Source: Desulfosudaceae bacterium (GTDB lineage Bacteria > Desulfobacterota > Desulfobacteria > Desulfobacterales > Desulfosudaceae). Taken from it: a stretch of DNA of 64,000 nt. The notes under the pieces were generated by a model. That model saw only the letters and a program-made list of their open reading frames with translations. It did not search any database and had not been told where the DNA came from. The stretch covers positions 1,088,001 to 1,152,000 of the forward strand of contig CAXXDV010000001.1 in the NCBI GenBank assembly GCA_963674745.2, given 5' to 3'. The position numbers were made by a program, and so were the translations under genes. Positions 45,644 through 52,854 of the stretch are shown one piece after another. The stretch's first letter is position 1. Each line of letters opens with the position of its first letter.

Positions 45644-45804
45644 GGGCTTGTCGGAAATTTTGGGTTAGAAAAATAAGAGCATAAAAATAATAAGTCATTA
45701 TATTTTAATTTGCAAGTTTCACGTTGATATTCCGGTTGACAGCGCTGCTGTTTATTATGATATTTAATTCTTCAACCGGTAACTTCGGAAGGGGGGAGAG
45801 TACC

Positions 45805-46272
45805 ATGAACAATAATCGCGGATTTACTTTAATAGAACTGATGATTGTTATTGCCATCATCGGTATTCTGGCCGCCATTGCTATTCCGAATTTTATCAGT
45901 TACCGCGACAAGGCCTTTCTGTGTGAAGGCATGGCCCTGTTTGATGATGCCAAGAAAAACATTGTCGATTTTTATGAGCATACCGGCCGGTTTCCTAAAA
46001 ACAATACCGAAGCCGGCCTGCCGCTGCCCGAAAACATAAAAGGTAAATATGTTAAAAGCGTAACCGTCAAAAACGGTGCGGTGGATGTGGAATACGACGA
46101 AGACTCCAGAGCCGCCAAAACATTTAAGGGCACGATCGTCTCTTTTCAACCGGCGGTTCTTAAGGAAAACCCGACCGGTTCGGTTGTCTGGCTTTTGGGC
46201 GTGTTCCATTCAGAAAAAATGCCGGAAACGTTTCTGGTGTATGGAAAAAACAACTCGGATATGAAGTGGTAG
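45805..46272 (+). CDS. pilA: Type IVa pilin, aromatic-rich
   Basis: MNNNRG|FTLIELMIVIAIIGILAAIAIP prepilin site; SD GGGGAG before ATG 45805. Confidence 0.88.
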   Translation: MNNNRGFTLIELMIVIAIIGILAAIAIPNFISYRDKAFLCEGMALFDDAKKNIVDFYEHTGRFPKNNTEAGLPLPENIKGKYVKSVTVKNGAVDVEYDEDSRAAKTFKGTIVSFQPAVLKENPTGSVVWLLGVFHSEKMPETFLVYGKNNSDMKW

Positions 46273-46317
46273 TCTCGTGAAAACGTCCCCTGCGTTCATT
46301 GAAAGGGAACCTTTACC

Positions 46318-46818
46318 ATGTTCAGTATGATAAACAATTCGCTGGAAAGTACGAATTCTTACACCAGACAGATTGAATTGTTTATCGTCATCGCAATCAT
46401 TGGTATTCTGGCCGCACAGGCCGTCAATGCCTATCATCCACTGCTTACCCGTGCTACCCTGCTCCACGCTGTCGGTGGAGGAGAACACCGGTGGGACAAT
46501 GTCTATTACTACGCCTTTCATGGTCAATGGCCCCGGAACAACGAACAGGCGGAAACATTTGGATGGAGCGGCCTTCATGGCCAAGACGGAAATGACTATA
46601 TTAAAAAAACGGTGTTGGAAAACGGTGCCGTTCATAAATATTTCGGACCGAAACTACCCAACCGGATAATCACAATACATCCTGCCGTACCGGCGAACGA
46701 TCCCCTAGGGCCGATTATATGGGTTTGCGGTCAGAAACGGACTCCTGAGGAATGGCAGGTCTTTGGCCAGGATAGAACAAATGTCACGCCTGAACATATT
46801 CACCCCTATTCAAAATAA
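46318..46818 (+). CDS. Pilin-like protein with degenerate prepilin cleavage site
   Basis: NSYTRQIELFIVIAIIGILAA lacks G|F; GQWP, ENGAV, IIWVCG pilin-domain motifs retained. Confidence 0.7.
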   Translation: MFSMINNSLESTNSYTRQIELFIVIAIIGILAAQAVNAYHPLLTRATLLHAVGGGEHRWDNVYYYAFHGQWPRNNEQAETFGWSGLHGQDGNDYIKKTVLENGAVHKYFGPKLPNRIITIHPAVPANDPLGPIIWVCGQKRTPEEWQVFGQDRTNVTPEHIHPYSK

Positions 46819-46844
46819 AACCGTTATCTTGCAGGAGATGTTCC

Positions 46845-47906
46845 ATGACATTTGAGTTATGGCTTTTAAGAAAAAGCTTAGGAAGAAAGGACGAAAATTT
46901 CAGCATGGCCTTTCGTCAGCTCGGCCTGATGATGGGAGCCGGCGTGCCGACACAAGAGGCCTTGGATACAATCATTACGGAAACCGGGGACAAAAGCACT
47001 AAACGCATCCTGACTGCCCTGAAAGACGACCTGTCAACAACAGCTTCCAGAGAAAAAAAGGATCCGGCCAAGAACACTGCATACGACAATCAAGCGCTGG
47101 TCTATATTTTAAAACAGGAGGGCAGCCGCACTAACGCAGCCGAGCTTCTTTACAGCATTGCCGACGAGCTTGAAAAAAGGGCCAAAGTAAAGAGGCAATT
47201 ACTTTCAGCCATGATATATCCCACCATAACAATATCCATAGCCTTGATGCTTTTATTGGTAATCCTTACCTTTGTTGTTCCCGTGTTTGAGCAGATGTAT
47301 CTGGATTTTGGCAAGGATCTGCCGGCCCCGACCCTATTTGTCATTAACATCAGCACACTGGTTCAAGATCATGTTGGCGTAATCATCACCGCTGTTTTGC
47401 TGATTGCGTTATTTGTCGTCAAACAAAAAAAGCTTATCCTCAGCCTAGCGGCCTATCTGCCTGTTTTCGGCGACCCCCTGAAAAGCATTTCTATTCTCCA
47501 GTTTACCAGATACCTGTCTGTTATGTTAAAGTTTGACATTCCGCTTTCCGAAGCCATTTTTTTTGCCGCCACGGCGGTCGACAATATTTTTTTCTCAAAC
47601 AAGACAAAACAAATGGGAAATACTGTTTCTCAGACCGCTCAACTGAAAGCGGCCATGGAAAAAACGCAATTGTTTCCCAGACCAGTTTTACAAGCAGTCG
47701 CGGCCGGTGAAAAAGCCGGAGCCCTTGATACCGTCTTTGCCCAGGTAGCAAAATACTACGAAAAAACAAGCGCTTTTTCTATAAACACGATGGTTTCAGC
47801 AATCGATATATTTATTATCGTCTTTCTGGGAGGAACTATCGGCGGTATGGTCGTCGCCATGTACCTGCCAATATTCAGAATGGCCGGCGCCATATCAGGA
47901 GGATAA
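46845..47906 (+). CDS. PilC/GspF-family platform protein, shortened and divergent
   Basis: FRQLGLMMGAGVP, SAMIYP, VVPVFEQMY...LPAPT, GEKAGAL, AMYLPIF. Confidence 0.82.
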   Translation: MTFELWLLRKSLGRKDENFSMAFRQLGLMMGAGVPTQEALDTIITETGDKSTKRILTALKDDLSTTASREKKDPAKNTAYDNQALVYILKQEGSRTNAAELLYSIADELEKRAKVKRQLLSAMIYPTITISIALMLLLVILTFVVPVFEQMYLDFGKDLPAPTLFVINISTLVQDHVGVIITAVLLIALFVVKQKKLILSLAAYLPVFGDPLKSISILQFTRYLSVMLKFDIPLSEAIFFAATAVDNIFFSNKTKQMGNTVSQTAQLKAAMEKTQLFPRPVLQAVAAGEKAGALDTVFAQVAKYYEKTSAFSINTMVSAIDIFIIVFLGGTIGGMVVAMYLPIFRMAGAISGG

Positions 47907-47919
47907 AAAGGAAATAGCG

Positions 47920-48405
47920 ATGATTAAAACAGACCATAGAGGTTTTACGTTAATTGAATTAATGATCGTCATGGCCATCATCTGGATCCTGGCTACCATG
48001 GCCATGCCCTCTTTTCAGGACCGGATCATCCGCACCCAGATTCAGGAAGCGTTCAACCTGGCTGAGATCGCCCGGGACGGGATTCAAGACTACTACAAGG
48101 CGCACCGGTCTTTCCCCGCTGACAATGCCGCCGCCGGACTTCCCGCGCCGGATAAAATCATCGGCAACTATGTCAAACAGGTGGCCATCAAAAACGGCGT
48201 CATTGACATTACCCTGGGCAACCGGATCAACCGGCACGTGTCCGAAAACATCGTGACCATCCGTCCGGCTGTTGTGAAAGACGCACCGATTGTGCCCATT
48301 GCCTGGATCTACGGCTACGCTTCAGTTCCCGAAGGCATGACCGTGATCGGCGACAACAACAGCACTGTTCTGCCCCGTTTGTTACCGGTAAATTGCAGGT
48401 ATTAG
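47920..48405 (+). CDS. Type IVa pilin
   Basis: MIKTDHRG|FTLIELMIVMAIIWILA; FPADNAAAGLP, GNYV, ends LPVNCRY. Confidence 0.88.
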   Translation: MIKTDHRGFTLIELMIVMAIIWILATMAMPSFQDRIIRTQIQEAFNLAEIARDGIQDYYKAHRSFPADNAAAGLPAPDKIIGNYVKQVAIKNGVIDITLGNRINRHVSENIVTIRPAVVKDAPIVPIAWIYGYASVPEGMTVIGDNNSTVLPRLLPVNCRY

Positions 48406-48422: not shown

Positions 48423-48666
48423 TGCCCGTTGCAGCCCAGCCCCGGCTGCGATTGATTTTTCCGGCAGCAGTGGTCAGGCTGTTTGAGCGCCGCCTCCCGG
48501 TGAAAACACCACACCCCAAGAAAGAGTATTGTGTCTGCAACGGGGCTTTAATCGTAATTAACCAGCGAGTTCCTGACCACGCCGGAAAAATCAACCGCAA
48601 CCGGGATCAGCCGGGGTGCCGGGCAATGTTTCTTTTGGTACTTTTCTTTGCGTCAAAGAAAAGTAC
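48423..48666. repeat. ~245-bp multi-stem structured intergenic element
   Basis: 48441-48465 pairs 48581-48605; GTGGTCAGG/CCTGACCAC; TGCCCG/CGGGCA; terminal perfect hairpin GTACTTTTCTTTG-CGT-CAAAGAAAAGTAC. Confidence 0.75.
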
Positions 48667-48673
48667 GGGTATT

Positions 48674-49297
48674 TTATTCGACCCCGAGGATATGTCCGAC
48701 CTGTTTCATGGCGGTCACGTGAAACTCCGCCGACAGGGCGGGATTGTTGTAGGCAATAAAAGGCACTTCGGCGGCACGGGCGGCCATTTCATCAAGTTCC
48801 GAATCGCCCACATAAACCATTTCATCCGGTCCGGCCTCAAAGTATTCCAGAATCTTCAAAAGCTGTTCCGGTGCCGGCTTGGGGCGCATCACGTCCAGGG
48901 CCGTCACCACCATCTCGAAACGATCGGACAGCCCGTGCTCATCCAGCACCCGGTTCATGGTGTTGGAACGGTTGGTGGCAATGGCCGTATGCATCCTGCC
49001 GTCTATTCTGTCCAGGAGTTCATCCAATCCCGGCGCTTTTTTCATGTGCTGGATAAATGGAAAATAGCTTAACTGCCGTCGATGGGCCTGGGCCTGGGCC
49101 AGGCCGTCCGGACCACACAGGAAAAGCAGTGCTTGTTCAACCGTATGCATCTGGACATAGACAAACTGCTTATCGGTTATCTCCGGTTTGCCCAGAGCCG
49201 CCATAATGGCATTGTAGTAGGCGCGATTGGCTGCTTCCGTGTCAAACAGAACACCGTCACAGTCAAACGCGACCACTTTACATGCTGATATTTTCAT
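48674..49297 (-). CDS. HAD-family hydrolase (phosphoglycolate phosphatase-like)
   Basis: FDCDGVLFDT, ATNR, KPAP, VGDSELD; ATG 49297 preferred. Confidence 0.9.
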   Translation of the reverse strand: MKISACKVVAFDCDGVLFDTEAANRAYYNAIMAALGKPEITDKQFVYVQMHTVEQALLFLCGPDGLAQAQAHRRQLSYFPFIQHMKKAPGLDELLDRIDGRMHTAIATNRSNTMNRVLDEHGLSDRFEMVVTALDVMRPKPAPEQLLKILEYFEAGPDEMVYVGDSELDEMAARAAEVPFIAYNNPALSAEFHVTAMKQVGHILGVE

Positions 49298-50090
49298 TTG
49301 GGGCCGGTACCGCTTTTGTTTCTTTTTTCCCGGCCGGTTTCGGCTGAGTGTTTTCGATCGGCTTGGGATTATAGATATTGCCATAAACCCGTATAGACAA
49401 CTGCGGTTGCGCTTTGCTGTCGGTATCAAGAAGAATCGTGTCCCGAAACGCCCCGGGTTGGGTGGTGGTGTTTTCAACCTCAACCAGATAGCCGGCCCGG
49501 TCGGTTTCCGGATCCGTCATTTCTTTTACCTCAAACCGGATATTCCGCCCCTGCTGTGCTTTTGAACCGGTAATCTTGAACGGGGTTTTTTCCGTAGGCA
49601 TTACCGTGACCGTTTTTTTTATGACGGTACCGGCCGTTCCGTTAAGCCTGAGCACAGAAGGCTTGATGTCGGCGAACTTTTCCACCGGAAAAGTCAGGGT
49701 TAAAGTAATGACTTTTCTAACCGGATCGTTTGTATAAACCTGGGCGTATTTGGACATGGTCCTTCCACCATATCCTTTTGAATTCATTTTGATGGTGACG
49801 TTTCCCTCGCCGCCGGCGGGGATGGATCTCGAATACGAGACGGCCGTGCACCCTCACCCGGTTTTGACTTTTTCTATTTCCAGCGGTGCGTTACCCTCGT
49901 TCTTGATAATAAAAGCATGCCGTACCTCGGTTCCTTCAATCACCGCGGCAAGGGTCTGGCGGGTCTTTTCAACCACCGCCATGGGTGCGGTCGGTGTCGG
50001 ATCAGTTACAGATTCTGTTTGCGTATCCGCTGCCACCGCCGTGGTGGCAAACAACAGCATCAACAAGCCGAGCATTCTGAACTTTATCAC
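49278..50090 (-). CDS. Exported DUF1573/Ig-like protein with in-frame UGA, probable selenoprotein (270 aa)
   Basis: ORFs 49854-50090 and 49278-49787 share a frame separated only by TGA at 49856-49854: IKNEGNAPLEIEKVKTG-U-GCTAVSYSRSIPAGGEGNVTI; signal peptide; SD AGGAG. Confidence 0.8.
49819..49853 (-). promoter_or_regulatory. SECIS-like hairpin
   Basis: After UGA: lower stem GGGUG/CAUCC, upper stem GUCUCG-UAUU-CGAGAU, apical loop 17-18 nt from the UGA. Confidence 0.6.
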
Positions 50091-50121
50091 AACAGTCTCC
50101 TTTTTCTTTTTTATGCATCCA

Positions 50122-50263
50122 GGGCACCTCTAAAAATTGCCTTTTGGCCCGATCTCGGCATTGTGCTCAAGTTTTAATCCTCGAAATACGTCAATGTATT
50201 CCTCCGGTTAAAATTTTCGCACGCCTTGACCTCGAACCAAAATTCTAATTTTTAGAGATACCC
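50122..50263. mobile_element. 142-bp MITE with 17-bp TIRs and 4-bp TSD (TCCA)
   Basis: GGGCACCTCTAAAAATT ... AATTTTTAGAGATACCC (15/17); TCCA at 50118-50121 and 50264-50267; internally self-complementary. Confidence 0.85.
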
Positions 50264-50754
50264 TCCAGTGTCATTCGTTGTGGCATCATGGTTTTCGTAT
50301 CCACGATGCAGAACCCGGGCACATCATCTTTCCCCAGCATTTCCCCCGGATTAATCACCAACGTATCATTAATTCGCTTATGCGTATATATATGAAAATG
50401 ACCGTAACAGATCAAATCAAACCGGCCGCCGGCCGCAATGTCCTCAGCAAACGTCCCGTCATGCATAAAGGCGATACGGCATCCGTCGGCATTTATCTGG
50501 CCGAAAAGCCCATGCAGAGTAATGTTTTGATACAGCGTCAAGGCGTGTTTTGTCAGCAGATACTGGTCCCCGTCATTGTTGCCGAAAACGCCGTGAGCCG
50601 GAATGCCGGCCGCGTCCAGCTCTTTTAACATGAACGGGGCCACAAAATCACCACAGTGAATGATCATGTCACAGGCGGCGGAACGAATCATCTCCACTGC
50701 CTGGCGGATGTGCGGTATCTGATCGTGGGTATCACTCATTATGGCAATACGCAT
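50245..50754 (-). CDS. YfcE/MJ0936-family metallophosphoesterase
   Basis: SDTH, HCGD, GNND, GHFH, NPG motifs; stop codon lies inside the MITE. Confidence 0.92.
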   Translation of the reverse strand: MRIAIMSDTHDQIPHIRQAVEMIRSAACDMIIHCGDFVAPFMLKELDAAGIPAHGVFGNNDGDQYLLTKHALTLYQNITLHGLFGQINADGCRIAFMHDGTFAEDIAAGGRFDLICYGHFHIYTHKRINDTLVINPGEMLGKDDVPGFCIVDTKTMMPQRMTLEGISKN

Positions 50755-50781
50755 GGTTTCCGACCTCTTTTATATACAATA

Positions 50782-52854
50782 CTACATCATCACATACGGG
50801 TCAACATCCACCACCAGCCGGACACCGTGGCGCCTGATGGCGGAACCACTGTCAGCCAACAGGCGGGCTGTAAAAAGGTTCAGGTCTGCTGCGGAACGAC
50901 CCTTTAGAAGAATCTGCCATCGAAACCGTCCGGCCAGCCGGTATATGGGCGACTCCACCGGCCCCAGGATTTCTACCCCCCCGAAACGGGCGGCATTTTC
51001 CCGCTTTAACAGGGTACACTGCCGACCGGCCATCATGGCCTGGGTCTTTGTTTTTTCAATGTCTTTTCCTGAAATCCGAAGTTGAATCAGCCTGGCATAA
51101 GGCGGGTAGGCGAGCTGCCGCCGGAATCCGATCTCTTTCTCATAAAAAGCCGCCATGTCGTGGGTTCTGGCCGTCTGGATACTGAAGTGGTCCGGATTAT
51201 AGGTCTGCATGATGACCCGCCCGGGAGTGTCACCCCGGCCGGCACGACCCGCCACCTGAGCCAGAAGCTGAAAGGTCAATTCGCCGGCCCGAAAGTCCGG
51301 AAAATTAAGGGCCAGGTCGGCGCAGATAATACCAATCAGGGTTATTCCCGGGAAATCATGACCTTTGGCCACCATCTGGGTACCGATAAGAATATCGGTT
51401 TTTCTTTTTTTAACGTTTTTCAGAATCCGGGCCATCGACCCTTTGCGGGTGGTCGTATCCCTGTCAAGACGGTCGACAACCGCTTCCGGAAAAAGCTGTT
51501 TTATAGCGGCCTCCACCTTTTCCGTCCCCATGCCGAGCTGCTTTATGGCGGTTGAACCGCAATGGGCGCATCCGACGGCCACCGGCCGGGAATAGCCGCA
51601 GAAATGACAACGATAGGCGTTTCCGCTCCGATGCAGGGTCAGGGTAATATCGCAGTTTTTGCACTTGACGGCCTCTCCGCAGACCGCACAGACGGGAAAA
51701 TTTGCAAAGCCGCGGCGATTTAAAAAAAGAAGCGCCTGATTTTTCCGGGCCAGGGTTTCCTTAATCGCCTGATAAAGTTCATCGGTTATAATTCCCCCCA
51801 GGCCTCGCCGGGAATGGTCGTTTCGCAAATCGACCACCTTGATTTCCGGAAGCGGGTAATTGTTTATCCGGTTTTTAAGAGAGTAAACATCTGAAAACTT
51901 TCCGGTTCGGGCATTATAAACCGACTGCATGGAGGGTGTGGCCGATCCCAATATGACCAGGGCGTTTGACTGCTTTCCCCGGACCAGCGCCAGATCCCGG
52001 GCATTGTATCGCAAACCGTTTTCCTGTTTATATGACGTATCATGTTCTTCATCGACGATAATGACGCCCAGAGAGTGGAGCGGGGCAAAGATGGCCGACC
52101 GTGTGCCGATGACCAGGCTTGCTTCTCGGCGCATGATTTTCATCCACTGGTCGCGACGTTCGGTTTTGGTAAGGCTGCTGTGAAGAACCGCAATCCGTTC
52201 TCCGAAACGCGCCCGGAATCGTCTTTCTGCCTGAGAGATCAGGGCGATCTCCGGCACCAGGATCAGGGCCGTCTGTTTTTGATTTAAAACCGCCTCGGCA
52301 ATGCGCATGTAGACTTCCGTCTTACCGCTGCCCGTCACTCCGGACAGCAGGCAGGAGTAAAAGCCGTTGCCGATGCGGTCAACGACCGCATCCACGACCT
52401 GCTGCTGCTCAGGCGTCAGGCAGGGCGGTTGATCCGGCACAATGACCTCTCCGATGGCGTCCCGGGATACTTTTTTCGCCCGGGCGGATCTTTTGGCACC
52501 GGTTGCCGCAGGCATGGCGTTTTTGATCGTTTCTCCCAAAGGGTAAAGGTAATAATCCGCGATCCAGCGGAAAAAAGCCGACATGCTGTCCGGAAACAGG
52601 GGCGTGTCATCAATAATATCAGAGATGGGCTTGAGGGCGGTGTCCGGTGTTTTTTCCGTCGGCCCGAGAACATATCCGGTCACGGTCTGCTGACCGAAGG
52701 GAACAAAGACGCGTTTGCCGGAAACCGCCTGACCGGTCAGATGAGGCGGTACCAGATAGGTGTAGGTACCGAAAACCGGAAGGCAGACCGCCACATCGAC
52801 GCAATCTGAAGCTGACAAATCAGGTGTAATGGAACTGTTCAGGGTTGACGACAT
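50782..52854 (-). CDS. priA: Primosomal protein N'
   Basis: GVTGSGKTEVY, DEEHD, GSATPS, four CxxC, GTQMVAKGHDFP, QVAGRAGR, DVDP. Confidence 0.95.
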   Translation of the reverse strand: MSSTLNSSITPDLSASDCVDVAVCLPVFGTYTYLVPPHLTGQAVSGKRVFVPFGQQTVTGYVLGPTEKTPDTALKPISDIIDDTPLFPDSMSAFFRWIADYYLYPLGETIKNAMPAATGAKRSARAKKVSRDAIGEVIVPDQPPCLTPEQQQVVDAVVDRIGNGFYSCLLSGVTGSGKTEVYMRIAEAVLNQKQTALILVPEIALISQAERRFRARFGERIAVLHSSLTKTERRDQWMKIMRREASLVIGTRSAIFAPLHSLGVIIVDEEHDTSYKQENGLRYNARDLALVRGKQSNALVILGSATPSMQSVYNARTGKFSDVYSLKNRINNYPLPEIKVVDLRNDHSRRGLGGIITDELYQAIKETLARKNQALLFLNRRGFANFPVCAVCGEAVKCKNCDITLTLHRSGNAYRCHFCGYSRPVAVGCAHCGSTAIKQLGMGTEKVEAAIKQLFPEAVVDRLDRDTTTRKGSMARILKNVKKRKTDILIGTQMVAKGHDFPGITLIGIICADLALNFPDFRAGELTFQLLAQVAGRAGRGDTPGRVIMQTYNPDHFSIQTARTHDMAAFYEKEIGFRRQLAYPPYARLIQLRISGKDIEKTKTQAMMAGRQCTLLKRENAARFGGVEILGPVESPIYRLAGRFRWQILLKGRSAADLNLFTARLLADSGSAIRRHGVRLVVDVDPYVMM

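Follow-up and report, generated by a model that had tools for sequence, protein, structure and literature searches.

The window analysed in this work is a stretch of 64,000 nucleotides (nt) from a Desulfosudaceae bacterium of the order Desulfobacterales (GenBank assembly GCA_963674745.2, contig CAXXDV010000001.1, positions 1,088,001 to 1,152,000 of the forward strand). It carries on its minus strand a gene, interrupted by an in-frame TGA codon, that very probably is an intact and genuine selenocysteine (Sec)-decoding member of the OS_HP2 family, whose proteins have a DUF1573 domain with a U-G-C motif. The frame is open from a GTG at position 50090 to a TAA at 49280-49278, and the TGA at 49856-49854 is its sole interruption. 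Two open reading frames (ORFs) of 78 and 169 residues, which appear separately in a program-made list, are parts of this one frame, the ATG of the 169-residue ORF being separated from the TGA by 22 sense codons. Direct reading of the frame thus confirmed what a preliminary description of the locus, made from the letters of the window and the ORF list, had claimed: a single frame split by the TGA alone, with a product of 270 residues containing VKTG-U-GCTAVS. Around the Sec residue the read-through product is ...EKVKTG-U79-G-C81-TAVSYSR.... The features of the gene and of its neighbours are collected in Table 1.

Table 1. Features of the OS_HP2-family gene and of the neighbouring genes. Positions are those of the window; nucleotides of the hairpin are numbered with the U of the UGA as nt 1.
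Feature	Position	Strand	Description and basis
OS_HP2-family selenoprotein gene, full	49278..50090	minus	GTG start, TAA stop, 270 residues, Sec predicted at residue 79; open frame and NF041425 match
Shine-Dalgarno AAGGAG	50097..50102	minus	6 nt 5' of the GTG start; direct sequence reading
UGA codon, predicted to be read as Sec (U79)	49854..49856	minus	TGA in 27/31 and TGC in 4/31 homologues in that column
Cys81 codon, Sec partner in U-G-C	49848..49850	minus	Cys in 31/31; G80 and C81 invariant in 35 sequences
Bacterial selenocysteine insertion sequence (SECIS)-like two-part hairpin	49820..49853	minus	Outer stem nt 4-8/33-37; inner stem-loop nt 16-31 (window 49826-49841)
Sec-type signal peptide, predicted	50031..50090	minus	Codons 1-20; presumed cleavage after A-V-A; by eye
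DUF1573 / PapD-like immunoglobulin (Ig) domain, carries the U-G-C turn	49698..49973	minus	Residues 40-131; Pfam, model and structure matches
Second Ig-like beta-sandwich	49371..49673	minus	Residues 140-240; predicted local distance difference test (pLDDT) 96-98; SbsC domain Z 9.5
HAD-IA hydrolase	48674..49297	minus	HAD_2 E 1.4e-25; only subfamily-level HAD-IA models over cut-offs
YfcE-family phosphodiesterase, upstream	50245..50754	minus	Metallophos_2; TIGR00040 86 bits, cut-off 56.25
priA, further upstream	50782..52854	minus	PriA domains

The Sec codon in related genomes

Matches to the NCBIfam model NF041425 above its cut-off were counted in the genome that contains the window, which is 5.55 Mb long in 3 contigs and 99.96% complete, and in 60 relatives. 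A match was present in 56 of these 61 genomes (the own genome included), and 57 of the 68 matches had one in-frame TGA, the other 11 being without it. When the domain was aligned from the window and 30 returned loci (31 sequences), the column of the Sec codon held TGA in 27 and TGC in four, the homologues coming from different genera; the second Cys of the motif was kept in all 31, and the protein was conserved on either side of the Sec codon. The alternation of TGA and TGC at one column between conserved coding flanks, which the preliminary description had put forward as a check on its proposal, was therefore found (27 against 4 of 31).

In a phylum-wide sample, a match at E ≤ 1e-20 was obtained in 96 of 301 genomes, and TGA and sense-codon forms both occurred. 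Twenty distant loci were picked by hand from the phylum-wide table, 15 with one TGA and 5 with no TGA, a ratio that reflects this choice and is not a result. They keep the U/C-G-C motif, with the exception of two Cys forms that have C-S-C and C-A-C. Taking the near and the distant loci together, every gene that lacks the TGA has Cys at the Sec column (nine out of nine, that is, 4 of the 31 near and 5 of the 20 distant sequences), and TGG was never seen there.

Some of the homologues have features of their own. In one relative (G017), two forms of the gene, one with TGA and one with a sense codon, lie less than 1 kb apart on a single contig (C37, 14970-15254 and 15924-16208), and this pair looks like tandem Sec/Cys paralogues. 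Another (G044) has an open frame of 2839 residues (C663:1512-5522) with at least 10 weak DUF1573/OS_HP2-like repeats and no TGA, so the DUF1573 domain is also found in giant repeat proteins. Many of the distant TGA homologues (L055-L069) have frames of 360-400 residues, about 250 of them after the Sec, and likely carry an extra domain relative to the 230-270-residue form of this order. Finally, locus L051 (G013:C13:5273-5542) has an in-frame TAG upstream of the domain in addition to the Sec TGA, with no start codon that could be picked, and may reflect damage to this copy or a fault in the assembly.

A covarying hairpin downstream of the UGA

A two-part hairpin just 3' of the UGA had been described from the window alone, and its sequences and pairing are present as claimed. 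The inner stem is formed by GUCUCG (nt 16-21) and CGAGAU (nt 26-31), closing a UAUU loop (nt 22-25) that begins 18 nt past the UGA, and in the outer stem GGGUG (nt 4-8) pairs with CAUCC (nt 33-37).

RNAalifold, applied to the 27 near TGA genes, independently predicted the pairs 4-7/34-37 and 16-20/27-31. When pairs were counted in these genes over an inner helix of 8 bp (14-21/26-33) together with the outer helix, 85.5% of the cells were paired, as against 30-52% when the 3' partners were slid. Double-sided changes were found in four pairs, and none of 500 shuffles matched the covariation score; at pair 17:30, 18 genes have UA and 7 have CG, and at pair 18:29 CG is found in 20 genes with UA in 6. 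In the outer helix a double-sided change was never seen; as this helix is built of codons for Gly-Cys and Ile-Pro, the comparison speaks neither for nor against it. Enlarging the set with the 15 distant TGA genes, to 42 sequences, left 71.1% of the cells of the named inner helix paired (28-47% in the slid controls), with double-sided changes in all eight inner pairs and, once more, a covariation score that none of 500 shuffles reached.

The Cys-codon genes provide the converse. In the same register, a mean of 6.48 of the 8 inner pairs was formed in the 27 Sec genes versus 3.0 of 8 in the four Cys-codon genes, and one of the latter (L050) encodes a near-identical peptide (CGCTAVSYPRQ...) with the hairpin absent. 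Since the hairpin occurs only in TGA genes and is missing from L050, it is under selection as an RNA structure, and solely where a UGA needs recoding. The covariation check that the preliminary description had suggested hence came out in favor of the hairpin, with compensatory changes in TGA genes and none of the hairpin in Cys-codon genes.

Several observations weigh against this view of the hairpin. As a single sequence its fold is not beyond chance (z = -0.09, with 79 of 200 shuffles folding at least as well), the minimum free energy structure retaining the inner stem only, and an Rfam scan of positions 48500-51000 with E up to 10 returned no SECIS family; two Rfam matches, to a prion pseudoknot and a microRNA, were at chance level and were discarded. 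With an unremarkable single-sequence fold and no Rfam family, support for the hairpin must be comparative. In the comparison, RNAalifold yielded an empty consensus for the 42 near and distant sequences; the stems differ between near and distant TGA genes, and the register of the hairpin appears to shift in the distant members. Among the near Sec genes, the weakest forms 3 of the 8 named pairs. In addition, the apical-loop G that is highlighted in the SECIS elements of PMC1976440 (legend to its Figure 5) is not conserved here, column 21 being G in 12 of 27 genes.

Selenocysteine machinery and the reading of the UGA

The presence of selA, selB, selC and selD, another check named in the preliminary description, was borne out, as all four were found above family cut-offs in the own genome: tRNA-Sec scored 75.1 bits (cut-off 47), and SelA, SelB and SelD scored 607.9, 369.8 and 368.6 bits, respectively. 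Within the window, TGA is the stop of 9 of the 29 long ORFs (non-overlapping, at least 250 residues). TGA is therefore also an ordinary stop here, and the genetic code is the standard one with local Sec recoding.

In the public protein collection, the product of the window is represented by a fragment of 159 residues that starts at M112 (P0002) and is labelled 'hypothetical'. About 20 fragments from relatives, of 150-190 residues, are likewise mostly unnamed or called 'hypothetical protein', and full-length Cys forms (219-325 residues) carry PF07610. Five database proteins (P0008, P0012, P0013, P0014 and P0019) have Trp at the Sec column (VKTG-W-GCTAVS), most likely because a gene caller read TGA as Trp, which would make them hidden Sec forms. 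The earlier claim of a gene split by gene callers therefore holds for public collections, where the 159-residue fragment is found, and only naive calls miss the full gene.

Two other explanations of the TGA have to be considered in this context. According to one, it would stem from a nonsense mutation or from a mistake in the assembly, and the locus would be a pseudogene or a pair of genes, as the public gene calls, which stop at the TGA and keep the C-terminal fragment only, and the lack of significance of the single-sequence hairpin might suggest. This is very improbable in view of the TGA found at the same column in homologues of different genera (27 of 31) and in 57 of the 68 above-cut-off matches, of the coding conserved on both sides, of a covarying hairpin restricted to TGA genes and of the complete Sec machinery. 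According to the other, the UGA would be read as tryptophan or by near-cognate read-through. The five database relatives with W at the Sec column could be cited for it, the simplest cause of their W being a gene caller run with a code in which TGA is Trp; the role of TGA as the stop of 9 of the 29 long window ORFs, the Cys found in 9 of 9 non-TGA genes with TGG in none, and the presence of a SelB-type hairpin and of the sel genes leave this explanation with hardly any credibility. Recoding of the UGA as Sec is the reading retained here, and the annotation should be corrected to record one selenoprotein of 270 residues. In this order OS_HP2 is found almost everywhere (56 of the 61 genomes), and most copies have Sec, not Cys. 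A widespread family that keeps costly Sec decoding represents a reasonable biochemical target.

Further observations concern the machinery itself. The SelD gene of this genome (contig C1:326061-326981) has one in-frame TGA, and the selenophosphate synthetase SelD is here probably a selenoprotein itself. The selB gene (C1:1156265-1158157) lies about 4.3 kb past the end of the window, at a distance of about 18 kb from the gene of the selenoprotein. Another SelB-like gene (C3:1795409-1797292) scored 239.9 bits, just below the SelB cut-off of 242.25, which raises the possibility of a SelB paralogue in this genome.

Family membership and earlier reports

PF07610 (DUF1573) covers residues 40-131 of the protein in Pfam (E 8.2e-19), which upholds the DUF1573 assignment made in the preliminary description, and the related family PF22544 (HYDIN/VesB Ig-like) matches with 37.3 bits against a cut-off of 25.5. 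With Cys substituted for Sec, the protein scored 128.8 bits against NF041425, named 'OS_HP2 family (seleno)protein', for which the curated cut-off is 100. A six-frame search of the genome with this model gave a single match, of 117.6 bits and with one TGA inside. The U79-G-C81 motif is located inside the PF07610 region, as expected of an OS_HP2 protein, which should have U/C-G-C within DUF1573.

OS_HP2 ('Olavius symbiont hypothetical protein 2') was introduced as a selenoprotein family in 2007 by Zhang and Gladyshev and was first found in deltaproteobacterial Olavius symbionts (PMC1976440). Table 2 of that paper lists two Sec genes and no Cys homologues for OS_HP2, and of its six new families Figure 5 illustrates the SECIS elements of five, OS_HP2 not being shown there (PMC1976440). 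In the ocean-sampling list published by the same authors in 2008, OS_HP2 appears with pfam07610, the motif UxC and 354 Cys homologues (PMC2398784), and it is included with the motif UGC in reviews of 2022 and 2026 (PMC9312934 and PMC13188914). The words 'periplasm' and 'signal peptide' are both absent from the main text of the 2026 review, and the main text of the BSepDB paper (PMC13326102) mentions neither OS_HP nor DUF1573. No function was given for DUF1573 in the papers that a literature search found to mention this domain, and none for OS_HP2 in the literature searched.

The present gene has in common with OS_HP2 the hidden Markov model (HMM) score, the Pfam domain, the Sec at the first position of U-G-C and the hairpin after the UGA. 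The lineage is also related, the named database matches to the protein coming from Thermodesulfobacteriota and Desulfobacterales. It differs in nothing essential and is a member of the family; its predicted signal peptide, its second Ig-like domain, its order-specific pairing with a HAD gene and its loop with no conserved G are absent from the passages on OS_HP2 considered here. The gene thus belongs to an already known selenoprotein family, on published lists since 2007, and constitutes no new kind of element. When the preliminary description spoke of a 'hidden exported selenoprotein', it was right about the selenoprotein and overstated the hiding, given the curated model NF041425 and the publications of 2007 and 2008.

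Domain organization and structural relatives

The N-terminus of the protein, MIKFRMLGLLMLLFATTAVA/AD, when inspected by eye, is organized like a Sec-type signal peptide, with an n-region, an h-region and a c-region of the AXA type. A similar basic-hydrophobic-small N-terminus was recognized, also by eye, in 27 of the 30 homologues for which a start was picked among the 31 loci; the picks for L026, L027 and L038 are doubtful, and none was made for L051. For structure prediction, 26 of the 31 locus proteins and 9 database proteins were aligned (35 sequences), with L024, L026, L027, L038 and L051 left out on account of doubtful starts or lengths. The resulting AlphaFold2 model has a mean pLDDT of 89.5 and, after the signal peptide, is made of beta-strands only, which form two beta-sandwiches spanning residues 38-137 and 140-240. 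U79-G-C81 is a tight turn between strands 70-77 and 81-86 of the model. In the alignment, H58, N64, G66, G80, C81, G93, G96 and G109 are invariant, and Y107 and G108 almost so. The order of the strands would place the Y107-G-G loop, the U-G-C turn and H58 at one end of domain 1, beside domain 2. The second Ig-like domain had no match in Pfam.

All that structure searches with Foldseek and VIA brought up were generic domains of the Ig-like, PapD-like or ASH kind, none of which offered an enzyme or a metal-binding site. Domain 1 has the same fold as the Ig domains at the C-terminus of VesC and VesB, two V. cholerae proteases (6bqm and 4lk4, respectively), with Z scores of 12.3 and 12.1 and a root-mean-square deviation (rmsd) of 2.2 and 2.0 Å over 98 and 96 residues, respectively; the PapD-like domains of HYDIN (2e6j and 2ys4) gave Z scores of 10.6 and 10.5, and MSP domains and pilus chaperones were also matched. 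Over this range of Z scores (10.5-12.3) the rmsd was 2.0-2.2 Å across 96-99 residues. The identity of these PapD-like/ASH/MSP Ig domains to domain 1 is merely 9-13%, and to our knowledge no Sec or Cys-x-Cys site is known in the Ig domains of VesB, VesC or HYDIN. As PapD-like, ASH and MSP domains are binding or scaffold modules, the shared fold gives no function. Domain 2 matched generic Ig-like modules, the SbsC domain (Z 9.5) being one of them. A Porphyromonas gingivalis structure (2qsv) likewise consists of two tandem Ig-like domains and is of similar length, 220 residues (Foldseek E 2.4e-08; VIA Z 10.3 over 194 residues), but it shares 9% identity with the present protein and deviates by an rmsd of 12.6 Å across both domains, hence has another domain orientation. 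By sequence, the PDB contributed only matches with E above 0.06 (chimallin and BamA), which were taken as chance.

Proposed mechanism and possible functions

The observations made on the gene and its product could be integrated in the following model. Translation would begin at the GTG at 50090, and at the UGA (49856-49854) the hairpin, 14-33 nt downstream, would recruit SelB with Sec-tRNA(Sec). Selenocysteine would then be inserted in place of termination, a step to which the comparative evidence points and for which the machinery is encoded. The N-terminal Sec-type signal peptide is predicted to take the protein over the cytoplasmic membrane, with likely cleavage after A20, and the mature protein, of about 250 residues, would be composed of the two Ig-like beta-sandwich domains. 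A reversible selenenylsulfide between U79 and C81 is the putative working site.

We tentatively propose that the U79-C81 pair serves as a redox-active site in the periplasm, carried by a scaffold other than thioredoxin and acting via this reversible selenenylsulfide, a role that the protein may well have although we would not call it probable. The C-G-C tripeptide is a known redox-active motif, and this is one of the two grounds on which a redox role is favored. The other is that most selenoproteins of known function are oxidoreductases (PMC2398784). Counting against a redox mechanism, the fold differs from that of thioredoxin, the top structural matches included no redox protein, and no redox or metal partner was found in the gene neighbourhoods of the window and of the 20 distant loci. 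None of the thioredoxin-type families was matched in Pfam and NCBIfam searches of the protein. The selenoprotein forms of DsbA and DsbG included in PMC2398784 are like the present protein in being exported, as is predicted for the latter, and in having a Sec/Cys pair a few residues apart that could form a reversible selenenylsulfide. However, proteins of the DsbA, DsbG and TlpA types have the thioredoxin fold and a C/U-x-x-C motif, whereas the present one has an Ig-like beta-sandwich and U-x-C. The OS_HP2 protein may work like the Dsb-type oxidoreductases, but it is no member of them. A redox-active Cys pair on a periplasmic Ig-like fold is known from the N-terminal domain of DsbD, which the present protein might resemble; no DsbD chain was among the structural matches listed, which does not exclude families outside that list.

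In the same selenoprotein, the U-G-C turn could instead be a metal or metalloid site, for copper, mercury or arsenic or for the carriage of sulfur or selenium, and the protein a periplasmic chaperone or scavenger with His58 and Tyr107 near that site. The invariance of H58 and near-invariance of Y107 alongside U79, G80 and C81 fit such a site, as does the common end of the sandwich at which H58, Y107 and U-G-C should lie by the strand order of the model; several metal-related selenoproteins, MerP for example, are on the list of PMC2398784. On the other side, the names of the families found around the gene in the window, or in 98 ORFs surrounding the 20 distant loci, included none for copper, mercury or arsenic, and the top structural matches did not include a metal-binding protein. 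Taken together, we regard a metal site as possible but rather unlikely.

The redox-active selenenylsulfide can also be placed in a broader proposal: OS_HP2 might be a periplasmic oxidoreductase or chalcogen-transfer protein with a catalytic selenenylsulfide on a PapD-like Ig scaffold unrelated to thioredoxin, exported unfolded via the Sec translocon and, in this order, tied functionally to the overlapping HAD phosphatase gene. We consider this proposal speculative and doubtful as a whole; in the literature found, no oxidoreductase or chalcogen-transfer activity is described for any DUF1573 protein.

Gene neighbourhood

The selenoprotein gene belongs to a same-strand run made up of priA, the YfcE-family phosphodiesterase gene, the selenoprotein gene itself and the HAD-IA hydrolase gene. 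The start of the HAD gene overlaps the end of the selenoprotein gene by 20 nt, and the two are perhaps co-transcribed. The conservation of this arrangement was followed by tblastn with the neighbours found in the window. Among the 30 near loci, a HAD gene was directly downstream in 24, the phosphodiesterase was present in 7, and PriA was upstream in at least 17, this last count being a lower bound because the flanks comprised 1.5 kb only. In the 3-kb flanks of the 20 distant loci, HAD was found at one locus and PriA at none. No Pfam family occurred at more than 2 of these 20 loci among their 98 neighbouring ORFs, and those seen at two loci each were FG-GAP, RNase H, sigma-54 activators, FAD_binding_2 and glycosyltransferases.

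The priA-phosphoesterase-HAD run in which the preliminary description had placed the gene is, therefore, present and conserved in the order, but it is not kept in the 20 distant loci, and PriA, HAD and the phosphodiesterase were dropped as functional clues because the arrangement is lost there. The synteny is read here as an order-specific gene order, and a run conserved only within the order says little on function.

Beside the HAD gene, a cluster on the opposite (plus) strand occupies positions 45724-48405 of the window. Two of its genes encode pilins that have N-terminal methylation motifs (45724-46272 and 47920-48405), and the others are an ORF with no family match (46318-46818) and a T2SSF/PilC-like gene (46845-47906).

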